Assembly (NCBI RefSeq): GCF_003018235.1
Contig: NZ_CP027437.1
Length of the DNA: 64,000 nt
Source: Escherichia coli
GTDB lineage: Bacteria > Pseudomonadota > Gammaproteobacteria > Enterobacterales > Enterobacteriaceae
Reading direction: 5' to 3' (one strand)
Of the stretch, positions 1 to 9,069 are shown in pieces. Position 1 is the stretch's first letter, and each line of letters begins with the position of its first letter. Both the position numbers and the translations under genes were made by a program. The notes under the pieces are model-generated. The model worked only from the letters and a program-made list of their open reading frames with translations, was not told the DNA's origin and searched no databases.

Positions 1-1007
1 AAGTTGCCCGCCAGCGCGCGGTGTTTACCGATCACATTACCATGATGGATGCGGTGAACGCCGAAGAAGTGGTGTGCATTGAAACCGGGCAGGCCTTTCG
101 TGACCATTTCGGCGGCCCTTACGCGGTGATCCACCGGGTTGATATTCACGCCTCGGTGTGGGAAGCGGTACTGACGCATCCGGACGTGGAATATCACACC
201 TCCACCAACGTCGTGGATATTCGCGAGACGGAAGACGATGTCACCGTGTTTGACGATCGCGGCAATAGCTGGACCGGCGATATTCTGATTGGCTGTGACG
301 GCGTGAAGTCAGTGGTGCGCCAGAGCTTATTGGGCGATGCGCCGCGTGTCACCGGACATGTTGTCTACCGTGCGGTTATCGATCGTGCCGATATGCCGGA
401 AGATTTGCGCATTAACGCACCGGTACTGTGGGCGGGGCCACATTGTCACTTGGTGCATTACCCTTTGCGCGGCGGCAAGCAGTATAACCTGGTGGTAACA
501 TTCCACAGCCGCCAGCAGGAAGAGTGGGGCGTGAAGGATGGTAGTAAAGAGGAAGTGCTCTCTTACTTTGAAGGGATTCACCCCCGTCCGCGCCAGATGT
601 TGGATAAACCGACTTCATGGCGACGCTGGTCAACCGCTGACCGTGAACCGGTGGCGAAGTGGGGAACGAAGCGCATAACGCTTGTGGGCGATTCGGCCCA
701 TCCGGTGGCGCAATATATGGCGCAGGGAGCCTGTATGGCGCTGGAAGATGCAGTAACGCTGGGTAAGGCGCTGGCGCAGTGTGAGGGTGATGCGGCGCAG
801 GCCTTTGCGCTGTATGAGTCGGTACGAATTCCGCGCACCGCGCGCATCGTCTGGTCGACCCGTGAAATGGGGCGGGTTTACCACGCCGCAGGGGTAGAAC
901 GCCAGGTACGTAATCTGCTGTGGAAAGGGAAATCGCAGGCAGAATTTTATCGCGGCATGGAGTGGTTGTACGGCTGGAAAGAAGATAACTGTTTGCAACC
1001 ACGCTGA
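1..1007 (+). CDS. FAD-dependent aromatic-ring monooxygenase (salicylate / 3-hydroxybenzoate hydroxylase family), C-terminal portion; 5' end lies outside the window
   Basis: ORF track 21..1007; the same frame stays open back to position 1. Contains the flavoprotein hydroxylase motif VGDSAHPVAQYMAQGACMALEDA (GD-AH...G-G). Not part of the K-12 dusC neighbourhood as I recall it. Confidence 0.75.
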   Translation, partial: VARQRAVFTDHITMMDAVNAEEVVCIETGQAFRDHFGGPYAVIHRVDIHASVWEAVLTHPDVEYHTSTNVVDIRETEDDVTVFDDRGNSWTGDILIGCDGVKSVVRQSLLGDAPRVTGHVVYRAVIDRADMPEDLRINAPVLWAGPHCHLVHYPLRGGKQYNLVVTFHSRQQEEWGVKDGSKEEVLSYFEGIHPRPRQMLDKPTSWRRWSTADREPVAKWGTKRITLVGDSAHPVAQYMAQGACMALEDAVTLGKALAQCEGDAAQAFALYESVRIPRTARIVWSTREMGRVYHAAGVERQVRNLLWKGKSQAEFYRGMEWLYGWKEDNCLQPR

Positions 1008-1034
1008 GCACTTCTTCACCCAATCAGGCGCACG

Positions 1035-1080
1035 GGCGGTCCCCTCGCCCCTTCGGGAGAGGGTTAGGGTGAGGGTAAAA
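1035..1080. repeat. G/C-tract imperfect palindrome (cccctcgcccc-ttc-gggagaggg ... gggtgaggg)
   Basis: Read directly from sequence; resembles small GC-rich intergenic palindromes of enterobacteria. Family assignment not possible without a search. Confidence 0.3.
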
Positions 1081-1125
1081 ATCTTGCCCGAATTAATCAG
1101 TAAGTCAGTTTGTCTGCAAACACAG

Positions 1126-1154
1126 GAGGCGCTAACATAGCGCCTCATTTTTTT
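1126..1154 (+). terminator. Intrinsic terminator-like hairpin: perfect 8-bp stem gaggcgct/agcgcctc, loop aacat, followed by T7
   Basis: Seen in sequence; lies downstream of the monooxygenase gene and only about 12 nt upstream of the dusC start codon. Confidence 0.6.
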
Positions 1155-1166
1155 GCGGGTGATGAT

Positions 1167-2117
1167 ATGCGTGTGTTACTGGCACCGATGGAGGGAGTGC
1201 TTGACTCTCTGGTGCGTGAATTGCTGACCGAAGTTAACGACTACGATCTGTGCATCACCGAGTTCGTCCGCGTGGTGGATCAACTGCTGCCGGTAAAAGT
1301 CTTTCATCGCATTTGCCCTGAGCTACAAAACGCCAGCCGGACACCATCCGGTACGCTGGTGCGCGTGCAGTTGTTGGGTCAGTTCCCACAATGGCTGGCA
1401 GAGAACGCCGCCCGTGCGGTGGAATTAGGTTCCTGGGGCGTGGATCTCAATTGCGGCTGCCCGTCGAAAACGGTCAACGGCAGCGGTGGTGGGGCAACGT
1501 TACTCAAAGATCCTGAACTCATCTACCAGGGTGCAAAAGCGATGCGCGAAGCTGTACCGGCGCATTTGCCCGTCAGCGTGAAAGTGCGTCTGGGCTGGGA
1601 CAGCGGTGAGAAGAAATTTGAAATCGCCGATGCGGTTCAACAGGCTGGTGCTACGGAGCTGGTGGTGCATGGACGGACAAAAGAGCAGGGTTACCGCGCG
1701 GAGCATATTGACTGGCAGGCGATTGGCGAGATTCGCCAGCGGCTGAATATTCCGGTGATTGCCAACGGCGAAATCTGGGACTGGCAGAGCGCGCAACAAT
1801 GCATTGCGATCAGCGGCTGCGACGCAGTGATGATTGGTCGCGGGGCGCTCAATATTCCCAACCTGAGCCGGGTAGTAAAATATAACGAACCGCGAATGCC
1901 GTGGCCGGAGGTGGTTGCTTTGCTGCAAAAATATACCCGTCTGGAAAAGCAGGGCGATACCGGGTTATATCACGTAGCGCGGATTAAACAGTGGTTGAGT
2001 TATTTGCGTAAAGAATACGATGAAGCAACGGAATTATTTCAGCATGTTCGGGTGTTGAATAATTCCCCTGATATTGCAAGGGCTATTCAGGCAATTGATA
2101 TCGATAAGCTGCGATAA
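1167..2117 (+). CDS. dusC: tRNA-dihydrouridine synthase C
   Basis: ORF 1110..2117; start chosen at ATG 1167 ([20 protein letters not shown]...), matching the remembered DusC N-terminus; Dus-family TIM barrel (NCGCP motif). Confidence 0.93.
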
Positions 2118-2219
2118 TAGTGGAATCGCAGTTTATCAGAGACAATGAATCGCTTATTCAGCGTCATCATCTTGTTGCGCTCCTTTCATGAGCTAAGCCA
2201 CATATTGCCACTGGCGCAA

Positions 2220-2420
2220 GGAGCGCGCAGGGGGAGGACAATCGCCTCCTCCCCCTGCCCCCCCGGGCTCTGGCGAACAAAATCGCCGCTGCGCGGTACC
2301 TTCAGCTTATCCCCTTCGGCTACCGGGTCGGGCGCGAGGAAACGTCCTTGTAAGACGCGCCCTCAGCCCACATCCATGTGGGCTGCCCCGGCCTTCGGGG
2401 AACGCTTCAGCGATTTTGAC
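2220..2420. other. GC-rich structured intergenic element with several hairpins (perfect 12-bp stem gcagggggagga/tcctccccctgc at 2226-2256; 10-bp stem cagcccacat/atgtgggctg at about 2354-2377)
   Basis: Seen in sequence. The 107-aa ORF 2145..2468 across it has no convincing RBS and is probably not coding. Confidence 0.3.
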
Positions 2421-2504
2421 GCCACCAACACCGGAGCTGTTTGCAAATCAAGTACACAAAATATCTAGTTCCTGACCTGACAACTTATATGCCATATCTG
2501 ATTT

Positions 2505-2588
2505 TTAAAATATCATCTTAAATACGCCAGTCACCACCAGTAGCCCAATCAGGAAAATAATCAATACAGCCCAGAGTATAATTTTCAT
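2505..2588 (-). CDS. yohP: Small hydrophobic membrane peptide YohP (27 aa, MKIILWAVLIIFLIGLLVVTGVFKMIF)
   Basis: Translated by hand from the minus strand (ATG complement at 2586-2588, TAA complement at 2505-2507); below the 60-aa cutoff of the ORF track; matches the remembered K-12 small protein. Confidence 0.8.
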   Translation of the reverse strand: MKIILWAVLIIFLIGLLVVTGVFKMIF

Positions 2589-2811
2589 TGGCGTTCCTTT
2601 ATTTGTGAGTGCTGAATAAGTATAGGAAAAAACGAAGCCCTTTGCCGTTATCCATAAACGATTAAGATAAATCGGAAGATATCATTCACTTAGTGTATAT
2701 TTTTCTGGATATGTCGTTTTATTGCTACTGATGTATTGCCACGCGGAACTAAAAAATATATCGCAACACACGGTAATCTCCGCGCACCTTTTCTTACCTG
2801 ATTATTCCCCC

Positions 2812-4248
2812 ATGAATCGTGATTCCTTTTATCCAGCCATCGCCTGTTTTCCGCTGTTACTGATGCTGACCGGGTGTGCGCCTATGCATGAAACCCGCCA
2901 GGCGTTAAGCCAGCAAACGCCCGCTGCACAAGTTGACACCGCATTACCCACGGCGCTGAAAAATGGTTGGCCAGACAGCCAATGGTGGCTGGAGTATCAC
3001 GATAATCAACTCACTTCATTAATTAACAATGCACTACAGAACGCACCGGATATGCAGGTGGCTGAACAGCGCATTCAGCTAGCTGAAGCCCAGGCGAAGG
3101 CAATTGCCACTCAGGATGGTCCGCAGATCGACTTTTCTGCGGATATGGAGCGGCAAAAAATGTCGGCAGAAGGGCTAATGGGGCCGTTTGCTCTGAACGA
3201 TCCGGCCGCAGGTACGACCGGTCCGTGGTACACCAACGGAACTTTTGGCTTAACGGCGGGCTGGCATCTCGATATCTGGGGAAAGAATCGGGCGGAGGTT
3301 ACTGCCCGCCTGGGTACGGTTAAAGCACGGGCGGCGGAACGCGAGCAAACCCGCCAATTGCTGGCTGGCAGCGTAGCCCGCCTGTACTGGGAGTGGCAAA
3401 CCCAGGCGGCGTTAAACACGGTCTTGCAGCAAATAGAAAAAGAGCAGAACACCATTATCGCGACCGATCGTCAGCTATATCAGAACGGGATTACTTCTTC
3501 AGTTGAAGGTGTGGAAACCGATATTAATGCCAGCAAAACCCGGCAGCAGCTCAACGATGTCGCGGGGAAAATGAAAATTATTGAGGCACGGTTAAGCGCA
3601 CTTACAAATCACCAGACAAAGTCATTGAAGCTTAAACCGGTCGCGTTGCCGAAAGTGGCAAGCCAGCTTCCTGATGAACTGGGGTACTCCTTACTGGCCC
3701 GGCGGGCAGATTTGCAGGCGGCGCACTGGTACGTTGAGTCATCGCTAAGCACTATTGATGCGGCAAAAGCGGCATTTTATCCTGACATCAACCTGATGGC
3801 CTTCCTGCAACAGGATGCGTTGCACTTAAGCGATCTGTTCCGTCATTCCGCGCAGCAAATGGGCGTTACGGCAGGCCTGACGCTACCCATTTTCGATAGT
3901 GGTCGTCTTAACGCCAATCTCGATATCGCAAAAGCCGAAAGCAACTTGTCTATCGCCAGCTACAACAAAGCGGTGGTTGAAGCGGTGAATGACGTGGCGC
4001 GGGCAGCCAGTCAGGTTCAGACACTGGCGGAGAAAAACCAGCATCAGGCGCAAATTGAGCGCGATGCCTTGCGTGTGGTAGGTCTTGCGCAGGCCCGCTT
4101 TAACGCGGGCATCATTGCTGGTTCCCGCGTCAGCGAAGCCAGAATCCCCGCGCTGCGTGAGCGGGCCAATGGCCTGTTATTGCAAGGGCAGTGGCTGGAT
4201 GCCTCCATTCAACTCACTGGTGCGTTGGGCGGGGGTTACAAACGCTGA
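2812..4248 (+). CDS. mdtQ: Outer-membrane efflux lipoprotein (OMF/NodT family); appears intact here
   Basis: ORF 2722..4248; start chosen at ATG 2812 (MNRDSFYPAIACFPLLLMLTGCAP) giving a lipobox LTGC; uninterrupted 478 codons. Confidence 0.85.
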   Translation: MNRDSFYPAIACFPLLLMLTGCAPMHETRQALSQQTPAAQVDTALPTALKNGWPDSQWWLEYHDNQLTSLINNALQNAPDMQVAEQRIQLAEAQAKAIATQDGPQIDFSADMERQKMSAEGLMGPFALNDPAAGTTGPWYTNGTFGLTAGWHLDIWGKNRAEVTARLGTVKARAAEREQTRQLLAGSVARLYWEWQTQAALNTVLQQIEKEQNTIIATDRQLYQNGITSSVEGVETDINASKTRQQLNDVAGKMKIIEARLSALTNHQTKSLKLKPVALPKVASQLPDELGYSLLARRADLQAAHWYVESSLSTIDAAKAAFYPDINLMAFLQQDALHLSDLFRHSAQQMGVTAGLTLPIFDSGRLNANLDIAKAESNLSIASYNKAVVEAVNDVARAASQVQTLAEKNQHQAQIERDALRVVGLAQARFNAGIIAGSRVSEARIPALRERANGLLLQGQWLDASIQLTGALGGGYKR

Positions 4249-4300
4249 TGATATGTGACTTCTATACTTAACGTTTATTCAGCGTTAAGTGGAGAACTCG

Positions 4301-5062
4301 ATGGCACAGGTAGCGATTATTACCGCCTCCGATTCGGGGATCGGCAAAGAGTGCGCGTTATTACTGGCGCAGCAAGGGTTTGATATTGGCATTACCTGGC
4401 ACTCAGATGAAGAAGGGGCAAAAGATACCGCGCGTGAGGTAGTTAGCCACGGCGTACGTGCGGAGATTGTGCAGCTGGATCTCGGTAAACTGCCAGAAGG
4501 TGCGCAGGCGCTGGAGAAACTCATTCAACGGCTGGGGCGTATTGATGTGCTGGTGAATAATGCTGGCGCAATGACCAAAGCGCCGTTTCTTGATATGGCT
4601 TTCGATGAGTGGCGCAAGATTTTTACCGTTGATGTCGATGGTGCATTTTTATGCTCACAAATTGCGGCCCGCCAGATGGTGAAACAAGGGCAGGGCGGTC
4701 GCATCATCAACATTACGTCGGTACATGAACATACGCCGCTGCCGGATGCCAGCGGCTACACAGCCGCTAAACATGCGCTCGGTGGGTTAACCAAAGCGAT
4801 GGCGCTGGAGCTGGTCAGGCATAAGATTTTGGTGAACGCAGTCGCGCCTGGGGCGATCGCCACGCCAATGAATGGCATGGATGACAGCGACGTGAAGCCC
4901 GACGCGGAGCCTTCGATTCCTCTGCGGCGTTTTGGCGCAACGCATGAGATTGCCAGCCTGGTAGCGTGGCTGTGCTCAGAGGGCGCAAATTACACCACCG
5001 GGCAGTCGTTGATAGTGGATGGCGGCTTTATGTTGGCGAATCCGCAGTTCAACCCAGAATAG
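4301..5062 (+). CDS. yohF: Short-chain dehydrogenase/reductase family oxidoreductase
   Basis: ORF 4289..5062; start at ATG 4301 (MAQVAIITASDSGIGKE); Rossmann TASDSGIG and SDR motifs. Confidence 0.9.
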   Translation: MAQVAIITASDSGIGKECALLLAQQGFDIGITWHSDEEGAKDTAREVVSHGVRAEIVQLDLGKLPEGAQALEKLIQRLGRIDVLVNNAGAMTKAPFLDMAFDEWRKIFTVDVDGAFLCSQIAARQMVKQGQGGRIINITSVHEHTPLPDASGYTAAKHALGGLTKAMALELVRHKILVNAVAPGAIATPMNGMDDSDVKPDAEPSIPLRRFGATHEIASLVAWLCSEGANYTTGQSLIVDGGFMLANPQFNPE

Positions 5063-5102
5063 CGCAGTGAGGTGCGTGGTTATTTCAATGGGTAAAATTT
5101 TG

Positions 5103-5124
5103 GTAGGCATGATAAGACGCACAA
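5103..5124. repeat. Left half of a REP palindromic unit (gtaggcatgataagacgc) split by the IS insertion
   Basis: Together with 6562..6576 (gcgtcgcatcaggca) it reconstitutes a REP-type palindrome once the IS and one ACAA copy are removed. Confidence 0.65.
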
Positions 5125-5654
5125 TGAACTGCACCCCAAATGTTGGACATAATCTGACATCTGAAGGTGCAGTTTATGAAACATTCATTTGAAGTAAAAC
5201 TTGCCGCTGTAAATCATTACCTGGCCGGTCATGCAGGCATCATTTCTACGGCAAAACTCTTTCAACTTTCTCACACCAGCCTCTCACACTGGATTAATCT
5301 TTTTCTTCTTCACGGTCCTCGGGCACTGGATTGCAGACACAAGCGTAGCTATTCTCCTGAAGATAAACTTTGCGTGGTTCTTTATGCTCTCGGGCATTCT
5401 GAGTCTCTACCCCGGGTAGCTGCCCGGTTTAACATTCCCAGCCACAACACGGTTAAAAACTGGATAAAAGGCTACCGCAAATCTGGTAATGAGGTCTTTA
5501 TCAGGCGCAGGAAGGAGAAAAGCATGACCCGTTCTGATGATACCCATGAAAACGAGGCAAACATGACGCCGGAAGAGATGAAGAATGAGCTGCGTTATCT
5601 TCGCGCAGAAAATGCATATCTGAAAGCCATGCAGGAGCATCTCCTGGAAAAAAA

Positions 5655-6556
<902 letters not shown>

Positions 6557-6557
6557 A

Positions 6558-6619
6558 CAAGCGTCGCATCAGGCATGGTGCCCCGGATGTCGGATGCGGC
6601 GCGAACGCCTTATCCAGGG
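6558..6619. repeat. REP/BIME palindromic units (right half of the interrupted unit plus a second unit ccggatgtcggatgcggcgcgaacgccttatccagg)
   Basis: Seen in sequence; canonical REP-like GCCGGATGCGGCG...CTTATCC motifs. Confidence 0.6.
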
Positions 6620-6627
6620 CAATGGTT

Positions 6628-7206
6628 TTACGCCTGATTATCCGGCTTTTTCTTCCCGCGTCGTTTCAGCCACCAGCGCACGCCTACCACCAGAACCACG
6701 ACCAGAATCAACCAGACCCAGTGCTTCAAATGCTGGTCGAGATTGTGCAACCACGGCGCAATCACCTGACCACCAGCGTAACCGATAGTGGTAAAAATCA
6801 ACGCCCAGGCAAATGCGCCGAGAATATTAAGCGGCAGAAAGATTTTCGGCGGCAGCTGGCTGGCACCAATCAGCGTCGGGCCAATCACCCGAAAGCCATA
6901 CATAAAGCGCGTACCAATGACAAACAGATACGGATGGCGTTGGATCAGTTTCTGCGCCCGCTCAATTTTATCCTGATGTTTCGAGAAACGGCGTAACAGC
7001 TTGCCGCCAAACCGCCGCCCGCACAGATAGAGCACCTGGTCGCCAATCATGCCGCCAAGCGCTACAGAAAGTACCACCAGCGGGAACTTTAATAGCCCCT
7101 GATGTGCCGCAACGCCTCCCAGCAAAGTCACGGTTTCACCTTCCGCCAGGCTACCGATAACCAGCGCGGCATAACCATATTGTGAGATGAGTGTATTGAG
7201 ATCCAT
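6628..7206 (-). CDS. yohD: DedA-family inner membrane protein
   Basis: ORF 6628..7242; start chosen at ATG complement 7204-7206 (MDLNTLISQYGYAALVIGSL). Confidence 0.9.
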   Translation of the reverse strand: MDLNTLISQYGYAALVIGSLAEGETVTLLGGVAAHQGLLKFPLVVLSVALGGMIGDQVLYLCGRRFGGKLLRRFSKHQDKIERAQKLIQRHPYLFVIGTRFMYGFRVIGPTLIGASQLPPKIFLPLNILGAFAWALIFTTIGYAGGQVIAPWLHNLDQHLKHWVWLILVVVLVVGVRWWLKRRGKKKPDNQA

Positions 7207-7375
7207 AGGCCAGTCTGTCTCCCTTTGGTTGCCTGTAAGCATACACCCTGTGAATCATTCACGCTGAAAAAGGACGTACATCAGACGGTGCAAATTACAT
7301 GGGCGAACAAAAAATAATCACAAGCTGACTTATACTTGAACTGTCAGGTTCATGAACTCACAACAAGGGGGCGGT

Positions 7376-7963
7376 ATGAGCCATGTCTGGGGACTGTTTT
7401 CCCATCCCGATCGTGAAATGCAGGTGATTAATCGCGAAAACGAAACGATTTCTCACCATTACACCCACCACGTTTTGCTGATGGCGGCGATTCCGGTGAT
7501 TTGCGCCTTCATTGGCACTACACAGATTGGCTGGAATTTTGGCGATGGCACTATCCTGAAGTTATCCTGGTTTACCGGACTGGCGCTGGCTGTCCTGTTT
7601 TATGGCGTTATGCTCGCTGGGGTCGCGGTGATGGGGCGGGTCATCTGGTGGATGGCGCGTAATTATCCGCAGCGTCCGTCACTTGCGCACTGCATGGTCT
7701 TCGCGGGCTACGTTGCAACTCCGCTGTTTTTAAGCGGTCTGGTGGCGCTTTATCCGCTGGTCTGGTTGTGTGCGCTGGTCGGCACGGTGGCACTGTTTTA
7801 CACCGGTTACCTACTTTACCTTGGTATTCCGAGCTTCCTGAATATCAACAAAGAGGAAGGCCTTAGCTTCTCCAGTTCGACGCTGGCGATTGGCGTGCTG
7901 GTACTGGAAGTGCTGCTCGCCCTTACCGTTATACTATGGGGCTACGGGTATCGTTTGTTCTAG
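7376..7963 (+). CDS. yohC: Yip1-family inner membrane protein
   Basis: ORF 7352..7963; start at ATG 7376 (MSHVWGLFSHPDREMQ); multiple transmembrane segments. Confidence 0.9.
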   Translation: MSHVWGLFSHPDREMQVINRENETISHHYTHHVLLMAAIPVICAFIGTTQIGWNFGDGTILKLSWFTGLALAVLFYGVMLAGVAVMGRVIWWMARNYPQRPSLAHCMVFAGYVATPLFLSGLVALYPLVWLCALVGTVALFYTGYLLYLGIPSFLNINKEEGLSFSSSTLAIGVLVLEVLLALTVILWGYGYRLF

Positions 7964-8136
7964 AAAGTTCTTTTGCGCTGCATTGCTGGCGTAAATGTCA
8001 GCAATGCAGCATTTCCTCACGATTCTCCTTTGACGATCGCACTTTTTGCTCGTTATGATGGCGTCGCTAGCCTCAGTAAATCCTTACTCCGGCGGTGCGC
8101 AACCCGTGCGCGTGAACCACTATCTGAATGCTCATC

Positions 8137-9069
8137 ATGCCGAAATTTCGAGTTTCTTTATTTAGCCTGGCCCTGATGCTGGCTGTGCCTTTTGCACCGC
8201 AGGCCGTTGCGAAAACGGCAGCCGCTACTACCGCTTCACAGCCGGAAATTGCTTCCGGTAGCGCGATGATTGTTGATCTGAATACCAACAAAGTGATCTA
8301 TTCGAACCACCCGGATCTGGTGCGTCCGATTGCGTCTATCAGCAAATTAATGACCGCGATGGTTGTGCTGGATGCGCGACTGCCGCTGGATGAAAAACTA
8401 AAAGTGGATATCAGCCAGACGCCGGAGATGAAAGGGGTCTATTCGCGCGTACGACTGAACAGCGAAATCAGCCGTAAAGATATGCTGTTGCTGGCGTTGA
8501 TGTCTTCAGAAAACCGCGCGGCGGCAAGCCTTGCGCACCATTATCCCGGTGGTTACAAATCCTTTATTAAGGCGATGAATGCGAAAGCGAAATCGCTCGG
8601 AATGAACAACACGCGCTTTGTTGAACCGACCGGATTGTCGGTGCATAACGTTTCAACTGCCCGTGACTTAACCAAACTGCTCATTGCCAGCAAACAATAT
8701 CCGTTGATCGGGCAGTTAAGTACCACCCGGGAAGATATGGCAACCTTCTCTAACCCGACGTATACGCTGCCGTTCCGCAATACTAACCATCTGGTGTATC
8801 GTGATAACTGGAATATTCAGTTAACCAAAACCGGTTTTACCAATGCGGCGGGCCATTGTCTGGTGATGCGTACGGTTATCAATAATAAACCGGTGGCACT
8901 GGTAGTGATGGACGCGTTTGGCAAATATACCCATTTTGCCGATGCCAGCCGCCTGCGTACCTGGATTGAGACCGGTAAAGTGATGCCTGTTCCGGCAGCA
9001 GCGTTGAGCTATAAAAAACAAAAAGCCGCCCAGATGGCGGCGGCGGGGCAGACGGCACAGAACGATTAA
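8137..9069 (+). CDS. pbpG: D-alanyl-D-alanine endopeptidase (penicillin-binding protein 7)
   Basis: ORF 8128..9069; start at ATG 8137 ([25 protein letters not shown] signal peptide); SxxK active site (ASISKLMT). Confidence 0.93.

Follow-up and report, generated by a model that had tools for sequence, protein, structure and literature searches.

We conclude with high confidence that positions 2812–4248 of the window (the 64,000-nucleotide stretch of Escherichia coli DNA analyzed here) carry mdtQ, a core gene of E. coli, in its ordinary wild-type and intact form, and that the pseudogene of K-12 is a young lesion of the laboratory lineage rather than the ancestral state. A megablast search recovered the surrounding locus (2600–4400) from 5423 of the 5426 complete E. 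coli genomes, with mdtQ annotated in more than 5400; the exact 478-residue protein of the window is already public under the name MdtQ on at least 1000 contigs, and the 90% cluster to which it belongs holds 11156 members, E. albertii included. Both the intact state outside K-12 and the core status of the gene are already known from RefSeq annotation and from a 2025 review, which counts mdtQ among the core genes of E. coli although it is annotated as a pseudogene.

The mdtQ reading frame and its family

The mdtQ (yohG) coding sequence occupies 2812–4248 on the plus strand, and both the ORF listing and the raw sequence give a frame without interruption from an ATG start to a TGA stop (1437 nt, 478 codons plus stop). 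The encoded protein matches the MdtQ equivalog model NF008524 (NCBIfam HMM) from end to end, with residues 1–478 on model positions 1–478 of 478 and a score of 1023.3 bits against a curated cut-off of 650 bits; the initial annotation, which had named the gene mdtQ and described an uninterrupted frame of 478 codons, was therefore correct. This end-to-end match, together with a dN/dS of 0.08, led us to reject a chance ORF. The ATG at 2812 is also the start used for the same gene in RefSeq and in the NCBIfam model. An alternative TTG start at 2722, which appears in some database entries and would yield a product of 508 aa, was rejected as it would bury the signal peptide.

Every sequence criterion that we tried places the gene in the MdtQ equivalog, the NodT subfamily and the OMF family. 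Against the NodT subfamily model TIGR01845 the window protein reaches 274.7 bits, above the cut-off of 210.05, and it falls under the cut-off of each of the NCBIfam models for MdtP, CusC-type proteins, AdeK and TolC. Pfam OEP (outer membrane efflux protein, PF02321; E = 2.6e-30) matches two stretches of MdtQ, the best-scoring repeat spanning 3016–3609 on the plus strand (residues 69–266) and the second lying further C-terminal, giving the tandem repeat that marks membership of the OMF family (TC 1.B.17). A search of PDB sequences aligned residues ~51–477 with the solved OMF homologues VceC (E = 1.5e-39), OprM (E = 5e-23), CmeC, CusC (E = 3e-21), SilC, OprN, MtrE and OprJ, so that the OMF-family features first noticed in the sequence are confirmed by Pfam, by both NCBIfam models and by homology to proteins of solved structure.

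At the N-terminus (MNRDSFYPAIACFPLLLMLTGCAP), a basic residue (R3) and a hydrophobic core precede the lipobox L19-T20-G21-C22, defining a predicted lipoprotein signal peptide at 2812–2877 on the plus strand (codons 1–22, with the Cys22 codon at 2875–2877). A regular-expression test against a PROSITE-type lipobox pattern matched MNRDSFYPAIACFPLLLMLTGC with Cys22 as the lipobox cysteine, in agreement with the LTGC signal originally proposed. Under the Lol sorting rule an Asp at position +2 acts as an inner-membrane retention signal; in MdtQ the residue after Cys22 is Ala and the Asp signal is absent.

The Thr of this lipobox is encoded by an A at 2869, and both K-12 and the other ten sampled alleles read LAGC at the same place. 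Such a minority residue raises the question of whether the allele is open yet crippled by missense change, T20 above all, through impaired lipidation or sorting. We regard this as highly improbable: Thr is permitted at lipobox position −2 (PROSITE PS51257 rule) and passes the pattern test described above, and an exact search for T20 with identical flanks hit 194 of 5406 complete genomes, whose hosts include humans, cattle, dogs and poultry; it is therefore no private defect. The remaining residues of the protein either match sampled alleles or are conservative polymorphisms. Judged by this distribution, T20 is a minority yet established polymorphism, and it is the one noteworthy trait of this allele.

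The K-12 lesion and the distribution of intact alleles

Comparison with K-12 bears directly on the statement, in the initial annotation, that the K-12 allele is a pseudogene. This proved accurate: mdtQ of MG1655 (b2139, 1436 nt) carries pseudogene annotation, and that of the K-12 derivative ET12567 is noted in RefSeq as "frameshifted". Alignment of the window with the orthologous b2139 locus shows 13 substitutions over 1437 nt and one gap, the gap falling in an A5 homopolymer run (2959–2963, plus strand, codons K50–N51) that is A4 in K-12; the window does not carry this lesion. This 1-bp deletion is the sole disabling lesion of the K-12 gene, causing a −1 frameshift after codon 50 that runs into a premature stop ~20 codons downstream. 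Three of the 13 substitutions are nonsynonymous (T20A, I98V and H267N, window to K-12), and beyond the deletion the shifted K-12 frame, which meets no further interruption before the normal stop, departs from the window protein at just two residues (I98V and H267N). Since the frame has not otherwise decayed, the lesion is best described as a single, young homopolymer slip. We also looked for an internal deletion or rearrangement of the window gene relative to intact orthologs, and rejected it: the sequence is colinear with K-12 and with 11 other alleles, with point differences only, and the gene stays intact.

The distribution of the two states of the A-run was followed with 85-nt probes centered on the run, counting as an exact match a hit of 99% or better in complete E. 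coli genomes. The A5 probe matched 3054 genomes and the K-12 A4 probe 355 of 5411; among the A4 matches listed, 60 of 60 were K-12 laboratory strains or derivatives, including MG1655, DH5alpha, DH1, C600, J53, NCM3722, RR1, HST04 and AG100. The ~2000 remaining genomes have an SNP in the flank of the run and fall outside this A4/A5 classification, and frame intactness across the 5426 genomes is therefore approximated by the 85-nt allele searches together with a spread sample. For the latter, 12 matches were fetched, 11 of them picked from an even-step sample so as to span its identity range of 97.3–99.9% over an 1801-bp query and the twelfth, OkiPb01703, chosen because its match already showed an IS421 transposase. 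The ten intact non-K-12 alleles sampled (O157:H7, B, C8, O8:H8, S1-CHI-01-A, EC-16-526, SF-173, EC-14-2-9, 536 and N17) are, without exception, 1437 nt long, encode 478 aa and are annotated mdtQ. Intact mdtQ is thus the usual state in E. coli, and outside the laboratory lineage of K-12 the frameshift is essentially absent.

Two independent natural lesions were met among the fetched genomes. In E. coli A8 (positions 413–1888 of the segment fetched from NZ_CP028766.1) the gene has lost 1 bp close to its 3′ end, so that the final residues are replaced and the product is lengthened to 491 aa; RefSeq still annotates it as an intact MdtQ despite its altered C-terminus. In OkiPb01703 (positions 413–3198 of the segment fetched from NZ_AP042616.1) the gene is split by an IS421 insertion. 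Sporadic, recurrent truncation of the gene is also on record for some Typhi and Paratyphi A strains of Salmonella (PMC9241588), and occasional natural inactivation of this kind indicates that the gene is dispensable.

Among known E. coli MdtQ sequences, that of strain 104 (chicken, China; WP_001078172.1) is one nucleotide away from the window, at 3680, and differs by one amino acid, the window carrying the common residue, Leu290, at this site. An allele of O157:H7, whose MdtQ is represented in UniProt by Q8X659, has 478 aa and lies four amino acids from the window. Both share with the window the locus order yohP–mdtQ–yohF and the length of the protein.

Twelve intact alleles (the window, strain 104 and the ten sampled) were compared pairwise by the Nei–Gojobori method, giving a median dN/dS of 0.08 (range 0.03–0.17; 64 pairs with dS > 0.02) and, among polymorphic codons, 63 with synonymous changes only versus 18 that change an amino acid. 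MdtQ bears the signature of purifying selection across E. coli phylogroups. We infer from full-length homology and from this strong selection, the latter being the best computational support, that mdtQ of the window is probably functional. The earlier suggestion that the strain may keep a functional channel stands to this extent, with an intact gene, full-length homology and purifying selection on its side; what does not stand is the unusual state that it implied, as intactness is the norm of the species.

Locus context and expression signals

The order dusC–yohP–mdtQ–yohF is common to the window, K-12, strain 104 and 11 other genomes. Upstream of mdtQ lie dusC (about 1167–2117, plus strand) and yohP (2505–2588, minus strand), the latter divergent from mdtQ and encoding a small membrane protein of 27 aa (MKIILWAVLIIFLIGLLVVTGVFKMIF and stop); every fetched genome has yohP annotated in the corresponding place. 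The dusC–yohP intergenic region contains a TRIP1c repeat (about 2160–2449); a 107-aa ORF at 2145–2468 is probably spurious. TRIP1c has been placed 43 bp past the dusC/yohI stop and 363 bp ahead of the mdtQ/yohG start, and mediates occasional chromosomal rearrangements (PMC10888264). Downstream, yohF (4301–5062, plus strand), encoding an oxidoreductase of the SDR family, is co-directional with mdtQ and begins 52 nt 3′ of it, followed by IS1397 (5125–6556), yohD (6628–7242, minus strand), yohC (7352–7963, plus strand) and pbpG (8128–9069, plus strand). No adaptor or pump gene adjoins mdtQ among yohP, dusC, yohF, IS1397, yohD, yohC and pbpG, and mdtQ is therefore an orphan OMF rather than part of a linked tripartite system; the 2025 review likewise describes it as encoded independently.

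Several features of the flanks are observations in their own right. Immediately left of dusC, where K-12 and strain 104 have yohJ/yohK, the window holds the 3′ portion of a gene for 3-hydroxybenzoate 6-monooxygenase (21–1007, plus strand), and the monooxygenase–dusC junction is common to only 590 of 5426 genomes; this suggests an accessory aromatic-catabolism island of the gentisate type inserted between yohJ and dusC. To the right, the IS3-family element IS1397 (~1.43 kb, with orfA at 5167–5697 and orfB at 5802–6524, both on the plus strand) lies within the loop of the REP-like palindrome GACGC-ACAA-GCGTC, where the 4 bp ACAA appear to be duplicated. IS1397 is known to target palindromic units. 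Among the 5426 complete E. coli genomes, none reached a coverage of 80% over window positions 4900–6900, and the IS1397 site thus appears private to the source strain. An Rfam scan of 1–9000 gave nothing in or upstream of mdtQ; it did detect a full-length Peptidase-S11 RNA motif (RF03039, 72.8 bits) at 8052–8132 on the plus strand, just upstream of pbpG and overlapping its start, which is the cis-regulatory position expected of this motif.

Signals for expression of mdtQ itself are sparse in the regions scanned. The 20 nt before the ATG (2792–2811, cttacctgattattccccc) contain no Shine–Dalgarno-like purine run, and translation of mdtQ may be weak or dependent on another mechanism. A clear GGAG Shine–Dalgarno sequence precedes yohF, at 4291–4294. 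A sigma-70 promoter scan of 2100–5200 returned two sites against 2.9 expected from shuffled sequence, and a terminator scan of the same interval five terminator-like sites against 3.7 expected. No terminator-like site lies in the mdtQ–yohF spacer (4249–4300), so that co-transcription of mdtQ with yohF is possible.

The lack of a Shine–Dalgarno motif and of promoter sites beyond the shuffled expectation would fit a gene that is intact but cryptic, silent under ordinary conditions and giving the strain no working channel. The 2025 review, in which the mdtQ promoter is described as lacking experimental confirmation and the function of MdtQ as "not elucidated", would fit it too, as would the fact that K-12 lives without mdtQ. 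We nevertheless consider a cryptic gene unlikely. A dN/dS of ~0.08 across phylogroups reflects selection on the protein, and there must therefore be conditions under which MdtQ is made. That almost every genome keeps the locus (5423/5426) also speaks against silence, as does the Klebsiella orthologue YohG (479 aa), which is among the proteins identified in outer-membrane and exoprotein proteomics (PMC4404324).

A proposed export duct and its relatives

Homology to OprM, VceC and CusC allows a route to be proposed for the MdtQ protein. The precursor would be exported by Sec, Cys22 of the LTGC motif would receive diacylglyceryl, and cleavage by signal peptidase II and N-acylation would follow; with Ala at +2, the mature lipoprotein would then be carried to the outer membrane by the Lol system and assemble as a trimer, with a 12-stranded β-barrel and a long periplasmic α-barrel forming an exit duct of the TolC/OprM type, and this duct would dock on a periplasmic adaptor and an inner-membrane pump. 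These partners would be encoded elsewhere, because mdtQ is an orphan without adjacent pump genes. Lipidation, the trimeric channel and a role in efflux are all predicted here by homology. The proposed outer-membrane location draws indirect support from the listing of Klebsiella YohG in the proteomic study cited above, and an AlphaFold comparison has been published in the 2025 review.

What such a duct might carry is a separate matter. MdtQ could be a working channel for something other than drugs, serving ABC, MFS or RND export of an endogenous metabolite, a peptide or a metal, with "multidrug" in its name a legacy of weak K-12 phenotypes. The gene is an orphan with no linked pump, beside and possibly co-transcribed with the SDR oxidoreductase gene yohF; MdtQ and MdtP are described in the 2025 review as divergent proteins whose functions may be distinct, and the reported drug phenotypes are slight (2025 review, PMC9241588). 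No result points to any particular non-drug substrate, however, and the closest solved homologues (VceC, OprM and CmeC) are drug-efflux ducts. We consider a non-drug role possible but less likely than not.

As the K-12 gene is frameshifted, MdtQ has been missing from almost all laboratory studies of E. coli efflux. The yohG deletion phenotypes are said to come from Sulavik 2001 and reportedly stem from experiments in K-12, whose copy carries the frameshift; if that background holds, they are hard to interpret. More generally, a single slip in the A-run makes K-12 exceptional at this locus, and K-12 results on OMFs, those phenotypes included, are therefore not directly transferable to natural isolates. 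We tentatively suggest, while thinking it rather less probable than its opposite, that wild strains use the conserved intact channel as a second exit duct for some adaptor and pump, either condition-specific or a partial substitute for TolC. If true, natural isolates would hold a transport capacity, or a receptor surface for phages or colicins, that K-12-based studies have missed.

Among known systems other than MdtQ itself, the protein resembles the NodT-type OMFs VceC of Vibrio cholerae (PDB 1yc9), OprM (1wp1) and CusC (3pik), to which it is homologous over residues ~51–477 and with which it shares an N-terminal lipoprotein signal and two OEP repeats. These proteins are encoded with their own pumps (VceAB, MexAB and CusFBA, respectively), whereas mdtQ has no linked adaptor or pump. 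The resemblance to E. coli TolC is more distant, at ~12% sequence identity: TolC is not a lipoprotein, whereas MdtQ has a predicted lipoprotein signal, and TolC serves AcrAB and other pumps as their main duct, while no pump has been assigned to MdtQ.
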